IMG/VR virus record: IMGVR_UViG_3300022226_000005
Location: 3,140 to 67,139 of that record
Length of the DNA stretch: 64,000 bases
Origin: a virus
Strand: one strand, 5' to 3'
Shown here piece by piece: positions 5,311 to 45,409 of the stretch. The position numbers were made by a program, and so were the translations under genes. The notes below the pieces were generated by a model. That model did no database searches. It was given only the letters and a program-made list of their open reading frames with translations, and was not told where the DNA came from. Numbering within the stretch: the stretch's first letter is position 1; each line of letters begins with the position of its first letter.

Positions 5311-5784
5311 ATGATACCACGGGGAAACAGCCCCGTACACCGATTTATACACTCCTTAGAGGCAGACTACGTGAAATACGATTTCTCCCAAGACCCAGAC
5401 TACTTGGACATAGCGGCTGATATCATTGGCGTACCATATTTTGATGCTAATACCACGTACACAATCGCCATCTTTGACGACGATTGTGAGTTTCAGGCGG
5501 TAGTTTTGTACAATAACTGGGAAGAAAGGAACGTGTCTATGCACATAGCGTCGGTGTCGCCCAAGTGGGCAACGCTAGGTTCGCTTCGAACTGTTTTCGC
5601 GTACCCGTTCCAAGAGCTAGGCGTACACCGAGTGACGGCTGCTACGCGGGAGAACAACGCAAAAGCGCGCTCCATGCTTGCCCGCCTTGGGTATAAGCAA
5701 GAAGGCGAGCTTCGCCAATATTACGAGACCGGAGAAAGTGATATCATCTACGGTATGACCAGAGACGAATGCAGGTGGATTTGA
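5311..5784 (+). CDS. RimJ/RimL-type GNAT acetyltransferase (start may be GTG 5371)
   Basis: VHRVTAATRENNAKARSMLARLGYKQEG motif; position before internal virion genes is usual for podoviruses. Confidence 0.85.
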   Translation: MIPRGNSPVHRFIHSLEADYVKYDFSQDPDYLDIAADIIGVPYFDANTTYTIAIFDDDCEFQAVVLYNNWEERNVSMHIASVSPKWATLGSLRTVFAYPFQELGVHRVTAATRENNAKARSMLARLGYKQEGELRQYYETGESDIIYGMTRDECRWI

Positions 5785-6462
5785 ATGGGTAAAAAAAGCG
5801 CCAAGACACCTCAAGCGTCTTCGCAAGAAGTGGCCCTGGCCGATGTCGCGAAAAAGAAATTCGAGACGTATAAGCGCCTATACCGGCCGCTTGGCAAAGA
5901 AATGCTCAAGCGCAGCTCCGCGACAGAAGGCAAAATTAAAGAAGTCCAAGGCTTGGTCAACGCCGATGTGCAGCAGGCTAGCGCGGGCAGGGATTCTGCT
6001 ATTGCCGCCGCCGGTTTACGCGGCGGGCTGAAAGCCTCTGATAGCCGCGTGCTTATGTCCCGTGGCGCAAACCAGGAAGCTATTGCTACTGCGCGCGGCG
6101 CAGGTAGCGCGGCTGCCCGTCAAGGAGTTATGGCGGCTGACAGGGCGGGGAAAGAAGGGTACGTAGCGCTTGGCCACGGTATTGCCCGCCAAAGCATAGC
6201 GTCGCAAACTGGCCTCGCGCAAGACGCCACTAGTTCAGCCATCCAAGCAGCACAGTTGAAACTGAAGAAGGCCGACCAAATTGCCACCGGGCTTGGCAGC
6301 TTTTTTGGTGCGGCAGCGGGGATGTCAGAAGCAGGTTTGGGAGGTGGCGGCACGGCGGCTCGGCCACAGTTCGGCATGTACCAACTTGGCAACGCTGGCA
6401 GCGGTGCTGACGGCGGCGCTTACAGTTACGGCGGTTTTACCGGCGGCAGGAGCATGCGCTAA
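5785..6462 (+). CDS. Probable internal virion/ejection protein
   Basis: MGKKS start, Ala/Gly/Gln-rich helical sequence, position after the GNAT. Confidence 0.6.
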   Translation: MGKKSAKTPQASSQEVALADVAKKKFETYKRLYRPLGKEMLKRSSATEGKIKEVQGLVNADVQQASAGRDSAIAAAGLRGGLKASDSRVLMSRGANQEAIATARGAGSAAARQGVMAADRAGKEGYVALGHGIARQSIASQTGLAQDATSSAIQAAQLKLKKADQIATGLGSFFGAAAGMSEAGLGGGGTAARPQFGMYQLGNAGSGADGGAYSYGGFTGGRSMR

Positions 6463-31213: not shown

Positions 31214-31883
31214 AATTTTGCTCGAAGAGGTTTATTTTACTCTTACTGCCGTGAACATCAATAGCTATGTTTGGGGCTTTGATGGAGGTTCCGCTGCATA
31301 GTTTGCAGTCGGCGCATTGTACGCCTTTGTAAGAAGGGCAATAGATTTCGCCGTTAAGTAGCGGCTCGTTCGCTGTTTTGACCCGGTACGTTCGCCATCC
31401 CTGTTTAGTTGCCGAAAAATACTCCTGTTCATTGTCGACCGAAGCCATGCAGAGTGTTCTGAATTGTTTGTCACAAGTACTCCATTGATGCGTGTAGCCA
31501 GTATGATTCGGCCGGTGCAATTTCGCAAGAAGCTGTTGCCATGCCCCAAAGGGTATGGCAGTAGGGTCTCCGTATGCACCTAGTCGTAGGGGCACGCCTT
31601 TCGATTGCTGCGATAAGGTGTTTGGAGGGAATTTCTGAATTGCGGTTGGTGCTTGGTGGACTAATACGTAACAAGTGGCTCCGTTGCTTGGTCTGTGTAT
31701 GCAGTTTCCGCATATTGATTTGTCTGCTCCTGTTTTACACGCTTCGGTTGGCGACATTCCGTCAACTACGATCCAAGTTTGGAGCATATTACCGGTTTTT
31801 CGGTTAGATGAGTTTTCGGTGATGTAGCCTTTGATTGGGTTGCCGTCTATTTCGGACGGCCCACTGAAAAATAGTTCTGCCAT
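31197..31883 (-). CDS. Cys-rich GP88-like (radical-SAM-related) protein
   Basis: SICGNC, LRLGAYGDP, HTGYTHQW, MASVD, CP...CADCKLC. Confidence 0.6.
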   Translation of the reverse strand: MAELFFSGPSEIDGNPIKGYITENSSNRKTGNMLQTWIVVDGMSPTEACKTGADKSICGNCIHRPSNGATCYVLVHQAPTAIQKFPPNTLSQQSKGVPLRLGAYGDPTAIPFGAWQQLLAKLHRPNHTGYTHQWSTCDKQFRTLCMASVDNEQEYFSATKQGWRTYRVKTANEPLLNGEIYCPSYKGVQCADCKLCSGTSIKAPNIAIDVHGSKSKINLFEQNYANKS

Positions 31884-31886
31884 GTT

Positions 31887-34202
31887 TCACTTTATTTTTA
31901 CGACTTTATCCGTAGCCTTTTGGGTGGTGAAATAATCATCCATTTTTATTTTTGGGAACGCTGTGTCGTAGCCTTTTGTTACAAGGTTGGCTACGCGTTT
32001 GCGGCTGCTGCTCAGATTATGATAGGTGCACATTCTTGCGAATTTAGTTGCGGACATGTTGCGCGAGTTTTGTAGGATTTCGAACACACGTTGCAGTTCG
32101 TCGCGTGGTATAAAGTCTACGCCGGTTTCGGCCCACTCTTTGATTATGTTTTTATATTCTTCTGCAGTTATGTCGAATGCTGTGTTGCCGCTTCGGTCTA
32201 CGAATTCTAGGAAGAAATCGATGTTTCCTGTTTTGATTGCGTTAAAAAATAAGTCAACTGAATTGTATGATTTGTCTATTAAATCCTTACGCGCCTGGTT
32301 GTCAAGTACAGTTCTTGCGAGTCGCGCATTGGCGGCATAGGAATGTAGGAAATCTGCAAACTCTTTGAGTTCTGCTTCGATATCTGCCACTTGTTGAGCT
32401 GTGATTTCCAACCGCGTATTTTGCGGCGGCGCGATATTAAACCGGCGGTCGGTAGGGGATAGTGGAACAGCCGTGCCAGCGTTTGTGGCCAGAATAATAT
32501 TAAGAAAGGAATGAACCTCGTAAGCATTAGTTCGCATTCTGCGTATGGTAATTCGCTCTTCTGTGATGATATTTTTAATTTTGTTGTGTAGCCTTTCCAG
32601 TTGGTGGGCATCATGGATGTTGAATTCGTCAACAAATACAAAGATAGCTTCTTCGAGTTGGGCATTGAAAAGTTCTTCAAGGTTTTGTCCAGTAATTTGC
32701 GCGACGTATCTTTCTCCGAAGAGTGGCGCTAAAATTTTAGAGACTAGCAGGCCCTTGCCTGTTCCCTCTATCCCTGAGAACAGCCACGCTGTTTGGCTTT
32801 TTTGTCTTGTTTGAAAAATGAATGCTAGCCAGTTTAAAAAGTGCTCGTATGTTTGCTGGTCGGCTGTAATACTCTTTAGGATTAAGTCGATATTTTTTGG
32901 CACCGTGGCAGTGGGGGACGTAGAAGCGTTGCGGAGATACGGGGTGGGTGTAAATTTGTTTGCCCATTGGTCTGTGAAATCAATTACTTTGAGGGTTGTG
33001 GGGTTAAATTCATATGTCCAGTCCGGAATTGCTTCTGGCATGGGTATGTCGTGGTTGATTAGGAAGTCTTCTATTTTGGATTTGCTGGCTGTAGCTCTAA
33101 TATCGACTGTGTTTCCCACTGAATCGTAGAGTCCGTTGTAGTATTCGTCAGTGTTGAAATCTCTAAACACAACAGGAACGACTGTACGAGTCGTGGTTGC
33201 TTTTGCTCTTGCGATTCCTTGGTAGAATGTTGGGTCGATATCGCGGATTTTAACGAGCGGATGCCCTTTAAAGTTGCGCAGTACGTCGGGCCGGTTTTTT
33301 TCATAGTAATATCCCCATGATGGGTTGTCACCCACTATATTACAGCGTACGTATTCGCCTTGGTCCATGGTGTCGGCTATGATCATGGGGTCTGGGTTGG
33401 TTAGAATTTCATCGTCGCCATATGGTTTGTATTTAGCTTTTGATACTTTGAGCCCCATTTGTTTACGAAGCTCGTCGATTTTGTTTTGGAGGTCTGCTTT
33501 ATTTTTGCTTGGGTTTGGTGATGGCGTGAACGATGAAGTATCTTTGCCCCGCACCACTAAATCGAAGTATTGTGTTACCTGCGCGGACAAATTTATAAGA
33601 GTCGGGGGTGAAATGTATATTAACTTGTCGTTCTGGCAAGTAGAAATGTCGAGGGGCCATATAAGTGAGTGGCCATTCTTTGCGAGGATCAACTGATTGG
33701 CCAGTCCGCGCGTTGTAAAATTTAGTTCTTTCAGCCATTCTTTTAGTGCTCCTGGACTTGAGCGTGAAGCCAGCATGAAGTAAATGTGCCCCCGTAGGCC
33801 AGCCGTCCCTTTGAAGCCAGCGCTATTAGAGTGTTGGAATATATACGAGACATCTTGGAAATCCGGGCCGAGGCAGCGGATGAAGTCTTCGACGTCTGTG
33901 AACCCAGTGTCAAAGTCGAGGTCAAGGCATATCCATTCTGTTGGCTCTGTGGGGTTAGTTTTACCGCGTCTTTCTGATGCCACGAGTTCTTCTGATAAGA
34001 CGCCTTTGAGTGCGCAGTGGCCTTGGGCTGCGTGTTTGGTGAGGACTTGGTAGAGTTCATGGATTGTGGTGGGTTCTTCGCGGTGGCTGTTGAACGACTT
34101 TACTAGTGGGTATGGGTGGGTAGTAATTTTACCGTTGGCGTTTGCTTCGTGAGTTTTGCAGAGCGCAGCGCCATTGGCTGCTTCGAGGAAATCGATGCGC
34201 AT
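31887..34202 (-). CDS. DNA primase-helicase (primase N-terminus plus SF3/D5-like NTPase)
   Basis: WICLDLD, HIYF; Walker A GIEGTGKG, FVDE, DRRF. Confidence 0.85.
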   Translation of the reverse strand: MRIDFLEAANGAALCKTHEANANGKITTHPYPLVKSFNSHREEPTTIHELYQVLTKHAAQGHCALKGVLSEELVASERRGKTNPTEPTEWICLDLDFDTGFTDVEDFIRCLGPDFQDVSYIFQHSNSAGFKGTAGLRGHIYFMLASRSSPGALKEWLKELNFTTRGLANQLILAKNGHSLIWPLDISTCQNDKLIYISPPTLINLSAQVTQYFDLVVRGKDTSSFTPSPNPSKNKADLQNKIDELRKQMGLKVSKAKYKPYGDDEILTNPDPMIIADTMDQGEYVRCNIVGDNPSWGYYYEKNRPDVLRNFKGHPLVKIRDIDPTFYQGIARAKATTTRTVVPVVFRDFNTDEYYNGLYDSVGNTVDIRATASKSKIEDFLINHDIPMPEAIPDWTYEFNPTTLKVIDFTDQWANKFTPTPYLRNASTSPTATVPKNIDLILKSITADQQTYEHFLNWLAFIFQTRQKSQTAWLFSGIEGTGKGLLVSKILAPLFGERYVAQITGQNLEELFNAQLEEAIFVFVDEFNIHDAHQLERLHNKIKNIITEERITIRRMRTNAYEVHSFLNIILATNAGTAVPLSPTDRRFNIAPPQNTRLEITAQQVADIEAELKEFADFLHSYAANARLARTVLDNQARKDLIDKSYNSVDLFFNAIKTGNIDFFLEFVDRSGNTAFDITAEEYKNIIKEWAETGVDFIPRDELQRVFEILQNSRNMSATKFARMCTYHNLSSSRKRVANLVTKGYDTAFPKIKMDDYFTTQKATDKVVKIK

Positions 34203-34384: not shown

Positions 34385-34449
34385 GTTATTGCTCCTGTTG
34401 TGAAGCTTCATATTATTCCACTGTGGTGTGGACTGCCTGAAAAAGAGGG

Positions 34450-34551
34450 CACCGTTGTGGGGGTTGCACCCACACCATTTGCCCGCTTATACTAGTATCG
34501 GCGGGGTGGTTCTCATCTTGCCGTTGTGTTCTACGGCCTAGAGAAACGGTG
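34450..34551 (-). ncRNA. tRNA-like structured RNA (7-bp closing stem plus T arm, non-tRNA core)
   Basis: CACCGTT/AACGGTG stem; GTGGG-TGCAACC-CCCAC directly 5' of the 3' strand; two further multi-stem arms. Confidence 0.5.
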
Positions 34552-34628
34552 AATTTGGTTGGGCCAGCGTTGCAGAACCCGGCTGACCCGGAGCGGGTAG
34601 GAAAGGCATATGAGGGCCTATCTGCGGA

Positions 34629-44219: not shown

Positions 44220-44311
44220 TAGAACCGATCGGATTCGAACCGATGTCTGCTCAATCCGCCCTTATTACCAGGCTTCAAGCGAGCCGTGTTTCCTTATTAC
44301 ACCACGGTTGT
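44220..44311 (-). tRNA. tRNA-like element with 19-nt anticodon-loop insertion (nominal Ser-UGA)
   Basis: D stem GTGT/ACAC, anticodon stem GCTCG/TGAGC enclosing 26 nt, T arm ATCGG-TTCGAAT-CCGAT; C-C mismatch at 2:71; no CCA. Confidence 0.55.
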
Positions 44312-44362: not shown

Positions 44363-44593
44363 TCATTTGGTAGGGTGTTTCGCTAGTTGGCTTTTCAGGT
44401 TGCGTACCTGATAGGCGCGTTTGGCGAGCGCTTTGTTGGCGCGTTGGACTTCACCCAGGTAAATAAGTGATTGTAGGCGGTAACGATCGGCGAGGCGAGC
44501 GTTTTCTGTGGCCAGGTTTTTGTAGTAGCCGAGATGGCCTTCGAAGTTGGGTTGTTCGGGTTTTTCGATGAGTTTCAGGTGTTGTTGGGACAT
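44363..44593 (-). CDS. Small coiled-coil protein
   Basis: GAGGA SD before ATG 44593. Confidence 0.6.
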   Translation of the reverse strand: MSQQHLKLIEKPEQPNFEGHLGYYKNLATENARLADRYRLQSLIYLGEVQRANKALAKRAYQVRNLKSQLAKHPTK

Positions 44594-44628
44594 GTTGTTT
44601 CCTCTTGGTATGTGCGAAGTGCGAAGTG

Positions 44629-44698
44629 CGTAGCGCCACGGGATCGAACCGCGCCGTTTTAGTTTTGGAAACTTAACCGCCCCTTGGCTGAGCGCTAC
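44629..44698 (-). tRNA. tRNA-Trp(CCA)-like with reduced D arm
   Basis: Perfect acceptor GTAGCGC/GCGCTAC, T arm CGCGG-TTCGATC-CCGTG, loop TTCCAAA; 3-bp D stem with 4-nt loop; no CCA. Confidence 0.6.
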
Positions 44699-44704
44699 AT
44701 TGGT

Positions 44705-44776
44705 TGGTTGCGGGGGGTGGATTTGAACCACCGAGGTCCGGGTTATGAGCCCAGATTGAGACCGACCTCCCCCGCC
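44705..44776 (-). tRNA. Initiator-type tRNA-Met(CAT) with reduced D arm
   Basis: CTGGG-CTCATAA-CCCGG (three G-C pairs), 1:72 mismatch, T arm, encoded ACCA. Confidence 0.8.
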
Positions 44777-44863
44777 AGAATTTGCTCCGTGTTTGTTCGG
44801 CTGTCCTACAGCCACTCACCATCCGAGCAAGAAAATGAGAGGATCACGGCGTCCTTCGTGCTC

Positions 44864-44940
44864 TGGCTCCAAGAGCTGGGATCGAACCAGCGACCATCGC
44901 TTTAACAGAGCGGCGCTCTACCTGTCTGAGCTATCTTGGA
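44864..44940 (-). tRNA. tRNA-Asn(GTT)
   Basis: Canonical 77-nt cloverleaf with encoded CCA. Confidence 0.95.
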
Positions 44941-45162
44941 TTAATCTAGTTTACCGTACATGTACGATACCGGTTCGTCAAGCGAGAGGTCGAAATCGAC
45001 GTCGATGTCTTTGATTACTTCGGTGAGGATCTGTTTGATTTCGCTGTTTTTGTATCCGTCGACGGCGAGTCGTTCCTGGAGTTGTCGTTTTGCTTCGGTG
45101 TGCGTGGTTGCGTCGAGCATGTATTCGACATCAGTCAGTATTTTTGCTTTGACTTTCATCAT
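44941..45162 (-). CDS. Hypothetical protein
   Basis: GGAG SD; acidic C-terminus. Confidence 0.55.
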   Translation of the reverse strand: MMKVKAKILTDVEYMLDATTHTEAKRQLQERLAVDGYKNSEIKQILTEVIKDIDVDFDLSLDEPVSYMYGKLD

Positions 45163-45409
45163 TTTTGTGTTTCTCCAGTTCTTTACGAGCGAATTCTTCC
45201 TGAATTTCCAGGACGTGGCGGGCTTTGCCGATGTCTTCGATGTGCTTTTCGAGCCCGCCTTTGTTGCGGCGAAGGTATTTGTCAACTTTGCAGTATACAG
45301 CAGCTTGCAGGCCTTCGTAACCAAAGTTGTTGTATGTTGCTTCTAGCGGCTGCACTTTCATTGTTTTGTAGTGGTCGCCGCCGATTTGTTGGTCGAGAGG
45401 TGAGCTCAT
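45131..45409 (-). CDS. DUF3310-family protein
   Basis: QIGGDHY, QP, KY..R.K, EDIGKA. Confidence 0.85.
   Translation of the reverse strand: MSSPLDQQIGGDHYKTMKVQPLEATYNNFGYEGLQAAVYCKVDKYLRRNKGGLEKHIEDIGKARHVLEIQEEFARKELEKHKNDESQSKNTD

Follow-up and report, generated by a model that had tools for sequence, protein, structure and literature searches.

The virus record from which the sequence derives is 68.7 kb long and complete according to CheckV, and the window analysed here, a stretch of 64,000 nucleotides, represents most of it. The record has genes for terminase, portal protein, DNA polymerase, primase and helicase. Genes on the minus strand occupy approximately 23.5–54.3 kb, and a cluster of RNA genes lies inside this block. 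The order on that strand is a tRNA-Asn gene; a spacer of 87 nt; a gene with the anticodon CAU; 6 nt; a gene with the anticodon CCA; a 76-aa ORF; a 92-nt RNA; and a 171-aa ORF. Within the RNA cluster no sigma-70 promoter and no convincing terminator were found, and the neighbouring ORFs gave no functional clue. The features, in window positions, are:

44864..44940, minus strand: canonical tRNA-Asn(GUU) with encoded CCA, first in the cluster (ARAGORN; Rfam, 63.1 bits)
44777..44863, minus strand: spacer or leader from Asn to Met, 87 nt, similar in part to the leader of the first tRNA in contigs L087, L088 and L002, and ending in ...CAAATT
44705..44776, minus strand: compact initiator-type tRNA-Met(CAU), 72 nt, with encoded CCA (base-by-base check; 25.0 bits; ARAGORN)
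44699..44704, minus strand: spacer ACCAAU, 6 nt, between the CCA of Met and the first base of Trp (base-by-base check)
44629..44698, minus strand: compact tRNA-Trp(CCA), 70 nt, with G73 and CCA not encoded (base-by-base check; fold; L002 orthologue)
44363..44593, minus strand: 76-aa ORF directly 3′ of the Trp gene, a synteny marker kept in L002, L087 and L088
44220..44311, minus strand: tRNA-shaped RNA of 92 nt, the last RNA gene of the cluster (ARAGORN; passes Rfam)

A further tRNA-shaped element is present in the window at 34412–34628.

The genes were compared with the Rfam tRNA model RF00005, whose gathering score is 29 bits. The tRNA-Asn gene, described as fully canonical in the initial annotation, is so, with 63.1 bits; the Met gene reached 25.0 bits, below the threshold; and the Trp gene gave no match at E<=10. 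ARAGORN called the Asn, Met and 92-nt RNA genes and did not call the Trp gene, but it does call the Trp orthologue of L002 as tRNA-Trp. The Met-like genes of L002 and L087 have no Rfam tRNA match. Both compact genes of the window form a cloverleaf with all four arms; the acceptor stem has 7 bp, the anticodon loop 7 nt, and the T loop fits UUCRANY. The canonical core consists of a U8/N9 connector and a D loop of 7–11 nt with A14, R15, G18, G19 and A21; the Met gene has no connector, and the D loops of both genes are of 4 nt with GG only. A scan of both window strands for a 7-bp acceptor stem plus T arm returned the three cluster tRNAs, one spurious AT-rich site and nothing else, which argues that the compact tRNAs are not chance arrangements.

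In the Met gene, the acceptor stem GGCGGGG/CCCCGCA leaves G1·A72 unpaired and has six perfect pairs at 2–7. Nucleotides 8–9 are absent, leaving no connector. The D arm (44769–44758) has the 4-bp stem GAGG/UCUC and the 4-nt loop UCGG, with a linker AA; the anticodon stem UCUGGG/CCCGGA (6 bp, including three G-C pairs) carries the loop CUCAUAA, with CAU at 44747–44745; the variable region is CCUC; the T arm is GGUGG-UUCAAAU-CCACC; and A73 is followed by an encoded CCA. The shrunken D arm reported in the initial annotation is thus confirmed on the minus strand. Its description as a 3-bp stem with a loop of 4–6 nt suits the Trp gene (3 bp and 4 nt), and the Met arm is better read as 4 bp and 4 nt. 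The reported loss of U8 is correct and extends to position 9, and the initiator marks listed for this gene (three G-C pairs, 1:72 mismatch, CCA) were all found base by base.

Bases 24–72 of the Met gene, its 3′ two-thirds, have 85–87% identity to tRNA-Met genes in all 5,426 complete E. coli genomes, with matches at a median of four places per genome. The initiator gene of E. coli is present in four copies. Over the arms, the identity to E. coli tRNA-fMet (metZWV/metY type) is 87%, and the two share the CUCAUAA loop, the three closing G-C pairs, an unpaired 1:72, the acceptor pairs 2–7 (G2-C71 and C3-G70 among them), the UUCAAAU T loop, A73-CCA and the ...CCCCGCAACCA end. The D-stem pairs equivalent to 10:25, 11:24 and 12:23 are still G-C, A-U and G-C, the A-U at 11:24 being another likeness to tRNA-fMet. 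On the other hand, the phage gene has G1·A72 and not C1·A72, a D loop of 4 nt against 9, a 6-bp anticodon stem, a length of 72 nt against 77, and a score under the Rfam threshold. Compared with the E. coli initiator it lacks U8, G9 and five bases of the nine-base D loop, and it has two additional bases after the D stem, ahead of the anticodon stem; of these two, a U pairs with A as the sixth anticodon-stem pair. All the initiator features (CAU, unpaired 1:72, A73 and three consecutive G-C pairs at 29–31:39–41) are present, and the Met gene is, judging from its sequence, an initiator derivative.

Thermodynamic folding of the Met gene prefers a GAGGUC:GACCUC helix over the D hairpin (cloverleaf at −29.1 and minimum at −31.3 kcal/mol) and gives the D stem a pair probability of 0.04, so that in the modelled RNA this helix would rival the D hairpin as the actual fold of the region. 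The ARAGORN call for this gene (44779–44705) has the 5′ acceptor strand shifted by 3 nt, which makes room for a connector, and contains two C·C mismatches. The register adopted here is that of the Infernal alignment, and its six perfect pairs are identical to those of E. coli tRNA-fMet.

The Trp gene has the acceptor stem GUAGCGC/GCGCUAC and the connector U8 C9, which counts two bases, or one if C9 pairs with G26. Its D arm (44689–44678) is formed by A·G plus GCC/GGC (3 bp) and the 4-nt loop AAGG, of the form xxGG. An A·A mismatch interrupts the 6-bp anticodon stem, whose loop is UUCCAAA, with CCA at 44668–44666; the variable region is ACGG; the T arm is CGCGG-UUCGAUC-CCGUG; and G73 is present with no encoded CCA. 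The minimum-free-energy fold of this gene is the cloverleaf. The acceptor, T and anticodon arms had been described as intact in both tRNAs, which is right except for this interrupted anticodon stem of Trp.

The comparison with relatives involves three independent lineages: the window, L002, and L087/L088, which are nearly identical to each other. A search of IMG/VR with the DNA polymerase gave 80 loci, of which only L002 is a close relative (80% amino-acid identity); the DNA polymerase relatives at 35–38% have no tRNAs. A search with the 171-aa neighbour gave 13 relatives, Logan and ENA entries among them; a pattern search for the same protein gave no IMG/VR relatives; and a metagenome scan with an alignment of the 171-aa relatives gave five usable contigs (L085–L089). 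L087 and L088 carry the cluster, and in L085, L086 and L089 the same flanking genes enclose no tRNA, so the cluster is an insertion present in some members of the group. The L002 cluster runs Met-like gene, Trp, Gly-rich ORF and Asn; that of L087/L088 runs leader, Met-like gene, Trp, homologue of the 76-aa ORF and homologue of the 92-nt RNA. Exact-pattern scans of IMG/VR (Trp T arm plus acceptor; Met anticodon plus T arm) gave no match, a degenerate pattern of the Trp anticodon arm found only the L002 contig and two chance coding matches, and cultured phages offered nothing closely related to either the Trp gene or the locus.

The Trp genes of the window and L002 have the same 70-nt layout and differ at 18 of 70 positions, 13 of them in stems. 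Six pairs are doubly changed with pairing kept (2:71, 7:66, D-stem 12:23, 29:41, 49:65 and 51:63) and none is broken; the thirteenth stem difference is a purine-to-purine change inside the conserved mismatch 28:42. Under random substitution, 0.07% of trials preserve this many pairs (P ~0.0007). The double changes span all four stems, with six in register and 0–1 in slid registers. The anticodon loop and its closing pair, the D-loop GG, C9 and G73 are invariant between these two genes, and the CCA anticodon and G73 are invariant in the Trp genes of the window, L002 and L087. At the same position, L087 and L088 have a canonical Trp gene with 51.4 bits and a full D arm (4-bp stem, 7-nt loop), whose sequence is too different to tell whether it is an orthologue or a replacement. 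This canonical gene (L087:485–557; L088:1141–1213) has an A27·C43 mismatch that leaves a 4-bp anticodon stem.

The Met-like genes of L002 and L087 have C1·U72, acceptor pairs 2–7 as in the window, no connector and A73-CCA. Their D arm has a stem of 2–3 bp (2 bp only in L002) and a 4-nt RGGC loop, and their anticodon loop is UUCAUAU, changed at 32 and 38, above A29-U41 and two G-C pairs. The anticodon stem is lengthened to 8 bp, its 3′ strand having a single bulged U. Between L087 and L002 a double change occurs in the D stem at 9:16 (G-C to A-U), and in the extended stem at 18:41 (A-U to C-G) and 20:39 (G-C to C-G); the shuffle statistics for the pairwise comparisons, of the Trp genes and of the Met-like genes, are weak (7/500 and 50/500). 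In all three lineages the reduced Met gene retains the 1:72 mismatch, G2-C71, C3-G70, A73 and CCA, and the mismatch is kept despite different bases, G·A in the window and C·U in L002 and L087. The window gene is 87% identical to E. coli over the arms, against ~70% to the Met-like genes of L002 and L087. Common descent of the three is the simpler reading, since they share unusual derived traits and the position beside Trp.

These data bear on whether the genes might be tRNA pseudogenes in decay, or else an attP-type remnant of an initiator tRNA gene from a host. The low scores with the tRNA model would agree with such an origin, as would the canonical Trp at the same site in L087 and L088 and the short-D initiator-like copies of Solirubrobacterales, which repeat the 3′ two-thirds of a nearby canonical gene. 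However, the Trp changes are compensatory with no broken pairs, the 5′ acceptor strands are intact, and the reduced Met gene persists in phages that share only 54% identity in the neighbouring protein. The tRNA-fragment reading was rejected with the full 5′ acceptor strands and with the genome itself, in which there is no PF00589 or PF00239 match; without an integrase or resolvase the attP reading fails. The decay reading is, on these alignments, largely refuted, and together with its attP variant we regard it as extremely improbable. Selection and not random decay, as first suggested for this pair, is borne out by the six compensatory Trp changes and by the reduced Met gene in three lineages. 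Relatives with full D arms, which would have pointed the other way, exist for one half of the pair, the canonical Trp of L087 and L088, but the shrunken copies do not resemble mutated derivatives of that gene. Thus, both are selected, non-canonical tRNA genes, and most likely a working compact initiator and a working compact tRNA-Trp.

Reduced D arms are known from other tRNAs. The tRNA-Pyl of M. alvus works without a connector base, with four bases in the D loop and an interrupted anticodon stem of 6 bp. In mitochondrial tRNA-Ser(UCN) the connector is a single base, the D loop is small, the anticodon stem has 6 bp, and G18/G19 and the T-loop sequence are kept; tRNA-Pyl and the type I mitochondrial tRNAs, tRNA-Ser(UCN) included, retain the L shape (PMC7609411). 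Both phage tRNAs resemble this compact-core type (0–1 connector base, D loop of 4–5 nt, 6-bp anticodon stem) in their 4-nt D loop, 6-bp anticodon stem and short variable region. The Met connector is of 0 nt; Trp deviates with its two connector bases (one if C9-G26 pairs) and with the mismatch in its anticodon stem. The D-loop GG and the normal T loop are likenesses to tRNA-Ser(UCN). Unlike tRNA-Pyl, the phage tRNAs have variable regions of 4 nt (CCUC, ACGG) and not 3, the anticodons CAU and CCA and not CUA, and a retained GG and UUC T loop. In addition, their identity elements are those of Met initiator and Trp, and their carrier is a phage of bacteria, in which they differ from both tRNA-Pyl and tRNA-Ser(UCN). 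By these features, the phage tRNAs follow the compact-core design and are members of neither the tRNA-Pyl nor the mitochondrial family. A 4-nt D loop is also found in selenocysteine tRNA, and the best Rfam match of the L002 Trp gene is tRNA-Sec (25.4 bits, under the threshold), but the 6-bp D stem, the 8/5 acceptor/T arrangement, the long variable arm and the UCA anticodon of that tRNA are all absent.

Similar initiators were sought with a pattern in which the initiator acceptor strand is followed too soon (8–18 nt) by the initiator anticodon arm. Matches occur in 31 IMG/VR contigs and 83 genome contigs, and for 45 distinct sequences the acceptor 3′ strand could also be placed. At least a dozen form a clear subset, including L099, L101, L103, L111, L116, L118, L119 and L128 and, from metagenome bins, L155, L158 and L165. 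These have 0–1 nt after the acceptor, a D stem of 3–4 bp, a loop of 3–4 nt usually with GG, an anticodon stem of 6–8 bp and a short variable region. Their D stems differ from each other (GAGG/UCUC, GGGA/UCCC, CAUU/AAUG, AGGA/UCCU, CCUC/GAGG and CGAU/AUCG), and 1:72 is unpaired in almost all, the viral members having U·U, C·C, C·A and G·A. Mostly the mini-D initiator has no other tRNA at its locus, and about half of these initiators are overlooked by ARAGORN. Over all pattern matches, a hairpin at the 5′ end of the D region is found in 33% against 23% in shuffles, which is not significant because the set is mixed; the class is defined here from the clear subset. A literature search turned up no publication that describes D-arm reduction in phage tRNAs.

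Two other groups of short initiator-like genes were noted. The “D-armless” copies of Solirubrobacterales were not counted in the class, as their 3′ two-thirds are identical to a canonical initiator 3.3 kb away. These copies, of 63–65 nt, are composed of AGCGGGG, 9–10 nt, the initiator anticodon arm, the T arm and CCCCGCU, and occur in L146/L215 and L214 (chromosome OY970329.1), with similar ones in L151, L177, L188, L190, L192 and L201–L203. They are probably att-type duplicates; the one 3.3 kb from the canonical gene was probably left by a small integrated element, and oddly it has a matching 5′ acceptor strand too. The second group comprises initiator-type tRNAs of archaea (DPANN and other uncultured lineages) with only 18 nt from GCGGGG to the anticodon-stem GGG, 3–4 fewer than usual; they occur in L132, L135, L136, L143, L175, L176, L178, L185, L187, L194 and L195, and one sequence recurs in many bins.

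From these comparisons of sequence, we propose with a probability of about 0.6 that both genes of the window are working compact-core tRNAs. They would probably share a transcript with the rest of the long early/middle block of the minus strand, from which the host's RNase P and 3′-end processing would release them. MetRS would charge the CAU tRNA via the anticodon, A73, G2-C71 and C3-G70; with the retained 1:72 mismatch, the charged tRNA would be formylated, kept from elongation and used by the ribosome as an initiator. TrpRS would charge the other tRNA via CCA and G73, and UGG would be read. In both, the 4-base D loop is expected to keep GG in contact with the T loop, and the 6-bp anticodon stem with the 4-nt variable region would offset the small D arm, in Met without the 8–9 connector. 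By analogy, this may be the same kind of trade-off as in pyrrolysine tRNA and mitochondrial tRNA-Ser(UCN), with the L shape preserved. A specialised initiator role, which the initial annotation had also raised, is possible for the compact Met tRNA.

The same phage group has other tRNA-shaped RNAs that are probably non-decoding, and a non-decoding role is for this reason a live, though unlikely, alternative. The two genes could be tRNA mimics that act as decoys or sponges for nucleases, modification enzymes, IF2/IF3 or synthetases, or as RNase P/Z punctuation of a polycistronic transcript. That both fall under the thresholds of the tRNA model is consistent with this role, as are the structural inconsistency of the Met-like D region across lineages and the aberrant tRNA-shaped RNAs of the group, namely those at 44311–44220 and 34412–34628 and the two L002 tRNAs with a 6-nt loop and with CUA/A33. 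A processing signal or generic decoy, however, requires the acceptor and T arms only, whereas the phage genes have also retained anticodon loops of 7 nt in which U33, the purine at 37 and the anticodon CAU or CCA are unchanged. The kept A73 or G73, G2-C71, C3-G70 and 1:72 mismatch likewise form a pattern that fits recognition by synthetase and formylase.

The two L002 tRNAs just mentioned lie next to each other at L002:7136–7290 (minus strand of the locus). One, 78 nt long and scoring 62 bits, has the amber-reading anticodon CUA and A33 in place of U33; the other, of 72 nt and 48.5 bits, has an anticodon loop of 6 nt. Neither has a counterpart in the window.

Enteric VapC cuts the anticodon stem-loop of initiator tRNA, and no nuclease is known to us to recognise the D arm in initiator or Trp tRNA. 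Reduction of the D arm was also proposed, in the initial annotation, as an escape from host tRNA-targeting nucleases or toxins, with the tRNAs still usable in translation. Phage tRNAs do counter tRNA-cleaving defences (PMC10264068, PMC11464382, PMC11555353), and the mini-D initiator is often the single tRNA of a phage, a hint that initiator tRNA in particular has to be supplied. Moreover, in L002 and L087 the loop is altered at positions 32 and 38 (UUCAUAU). However, the documented cases act via the anticodon loop and not the D arm (PMC10264068), and L087 and L088 manage with a canonical Trp. In the window, the Met anticodon stem-loop GGGCUCAUAACCC is identical to that of the E. coli initiator; since this host-type stem-loop is retained, VapC-type escape is unlikely in this phage, and escape from enteric VapC is not favoured. 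As a general explanation for the reduced D arms, escape appears quite unlikely.

Within the preferred reading of two working tRNAs, the Trp gene may be compared with tRNA-Trp forms that read UGA. In E. coli, tRNA-Trp(CCA) reads UGA with A9C, with the Hirsh G24A change or with the loss of the top anticodon-stem pair, which leaves a 4-bp stem (PMC13092985). Like these, the Trp tRNAs of the window and L002 have C9, a remodelled hinge and a broken anticodon stem, and the canonical Trp of L087/L088 has the unpaired A27·C43 and a 4-bp stem; a related hinge or stem lesion is thus present in all three phage Trp genes. The break in the window and L002 is nevertheless at 28:42 and not 27:43, and these are not the exact lesions assayed in that work. 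The stop codons of the phage are TAA (40), TGA (35) and TAG (19), so UGA use is not reduced, and in-frame continuations in the phage genome are not commoner after TGA. Global UGA recoding or read-through was rejected, having no genomic support, with equal in-frame junctions after TAA and TAG.

Two in-frame TGA junctions are conserved in L002, TGA included. One, at 31883–31890 on the minus strand, reads primase, TGA, AAC, ATG; the other, at 5782–5787 on the plus strand, reads ...TGG ATT TGA ATG... (from 5311–5784 to the next gene). They may be ordinary tight junctions, and would give fusion proteins if UGA is read through.

An extended protein is made by Q-beta through UGA reading with the host tRNA-Trp. 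A broader and speculative proposal, to which we give little weight, is that phages repeatedly evolve a private compact initiator, here together with a compact Trp, whose pared-down elbow and hinge would alter its reading by IF3 proofreading, modification enzymes and tRNA-directed defences and so would give the phage its own initiation channel; the Trp tRNA, with its C9 and interrupted anticodon stem, might also read UGA at low frequency and yield extended proteins.

If the compact tRNAs are functional, bacterial translation would naturally accept initiator and elongator tRNAs without most of the D loop, or without the 8–9 connector, a reduced-core design previously thought to be confined to pyrrolysine and organellar systems. 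The genes also reveal an annotation gap, as a recurrent phage gene class escapes the standard tRNA finders, and many phages carry exactly one tRNA, an initiator in this reduced form. Compact tRNAs of this kind would be natural starting points for the engineering of orthogonal initiators or compact tRNAs.

Other observations concern the surroundings of the cluster. The leader before the first tRNA of the cluster carries a common hairpin-like motif GAGAGGTnnAAGTCCTC and a tail ...ACAAATT(C/T), at 44777–44863 of the window (minus strand), L087:299–402, L088:958–1058 and L002:16322–16394; in L002 it stands before the Asn gene and not before the Met-like gene. A role as phage promoter or as processing signal is conceivable. 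Upstream of tRNA-Asn, in the region 44941–45409 (minus strand), there is an extra 73-aa ORF (45162–44941), which has only the last residues ...MYGKLD in common with a single 96-aa protein of L002; this protein has homologues in L087 and L088, and the comparison of the two ORFs suggests an insertion or rearrangement beside the tRNA cluster. Directly 3′ of the Trp gene (window 44594–44631, minus strand), the tandem heptamers CGCACTT CGCACTT CGCAC sit just ahead of the ribosome-binding site of the 76-aa ORF, and motifs related to GCACTT are found in the equivalent place in L086 and L089, both without tRNAs.
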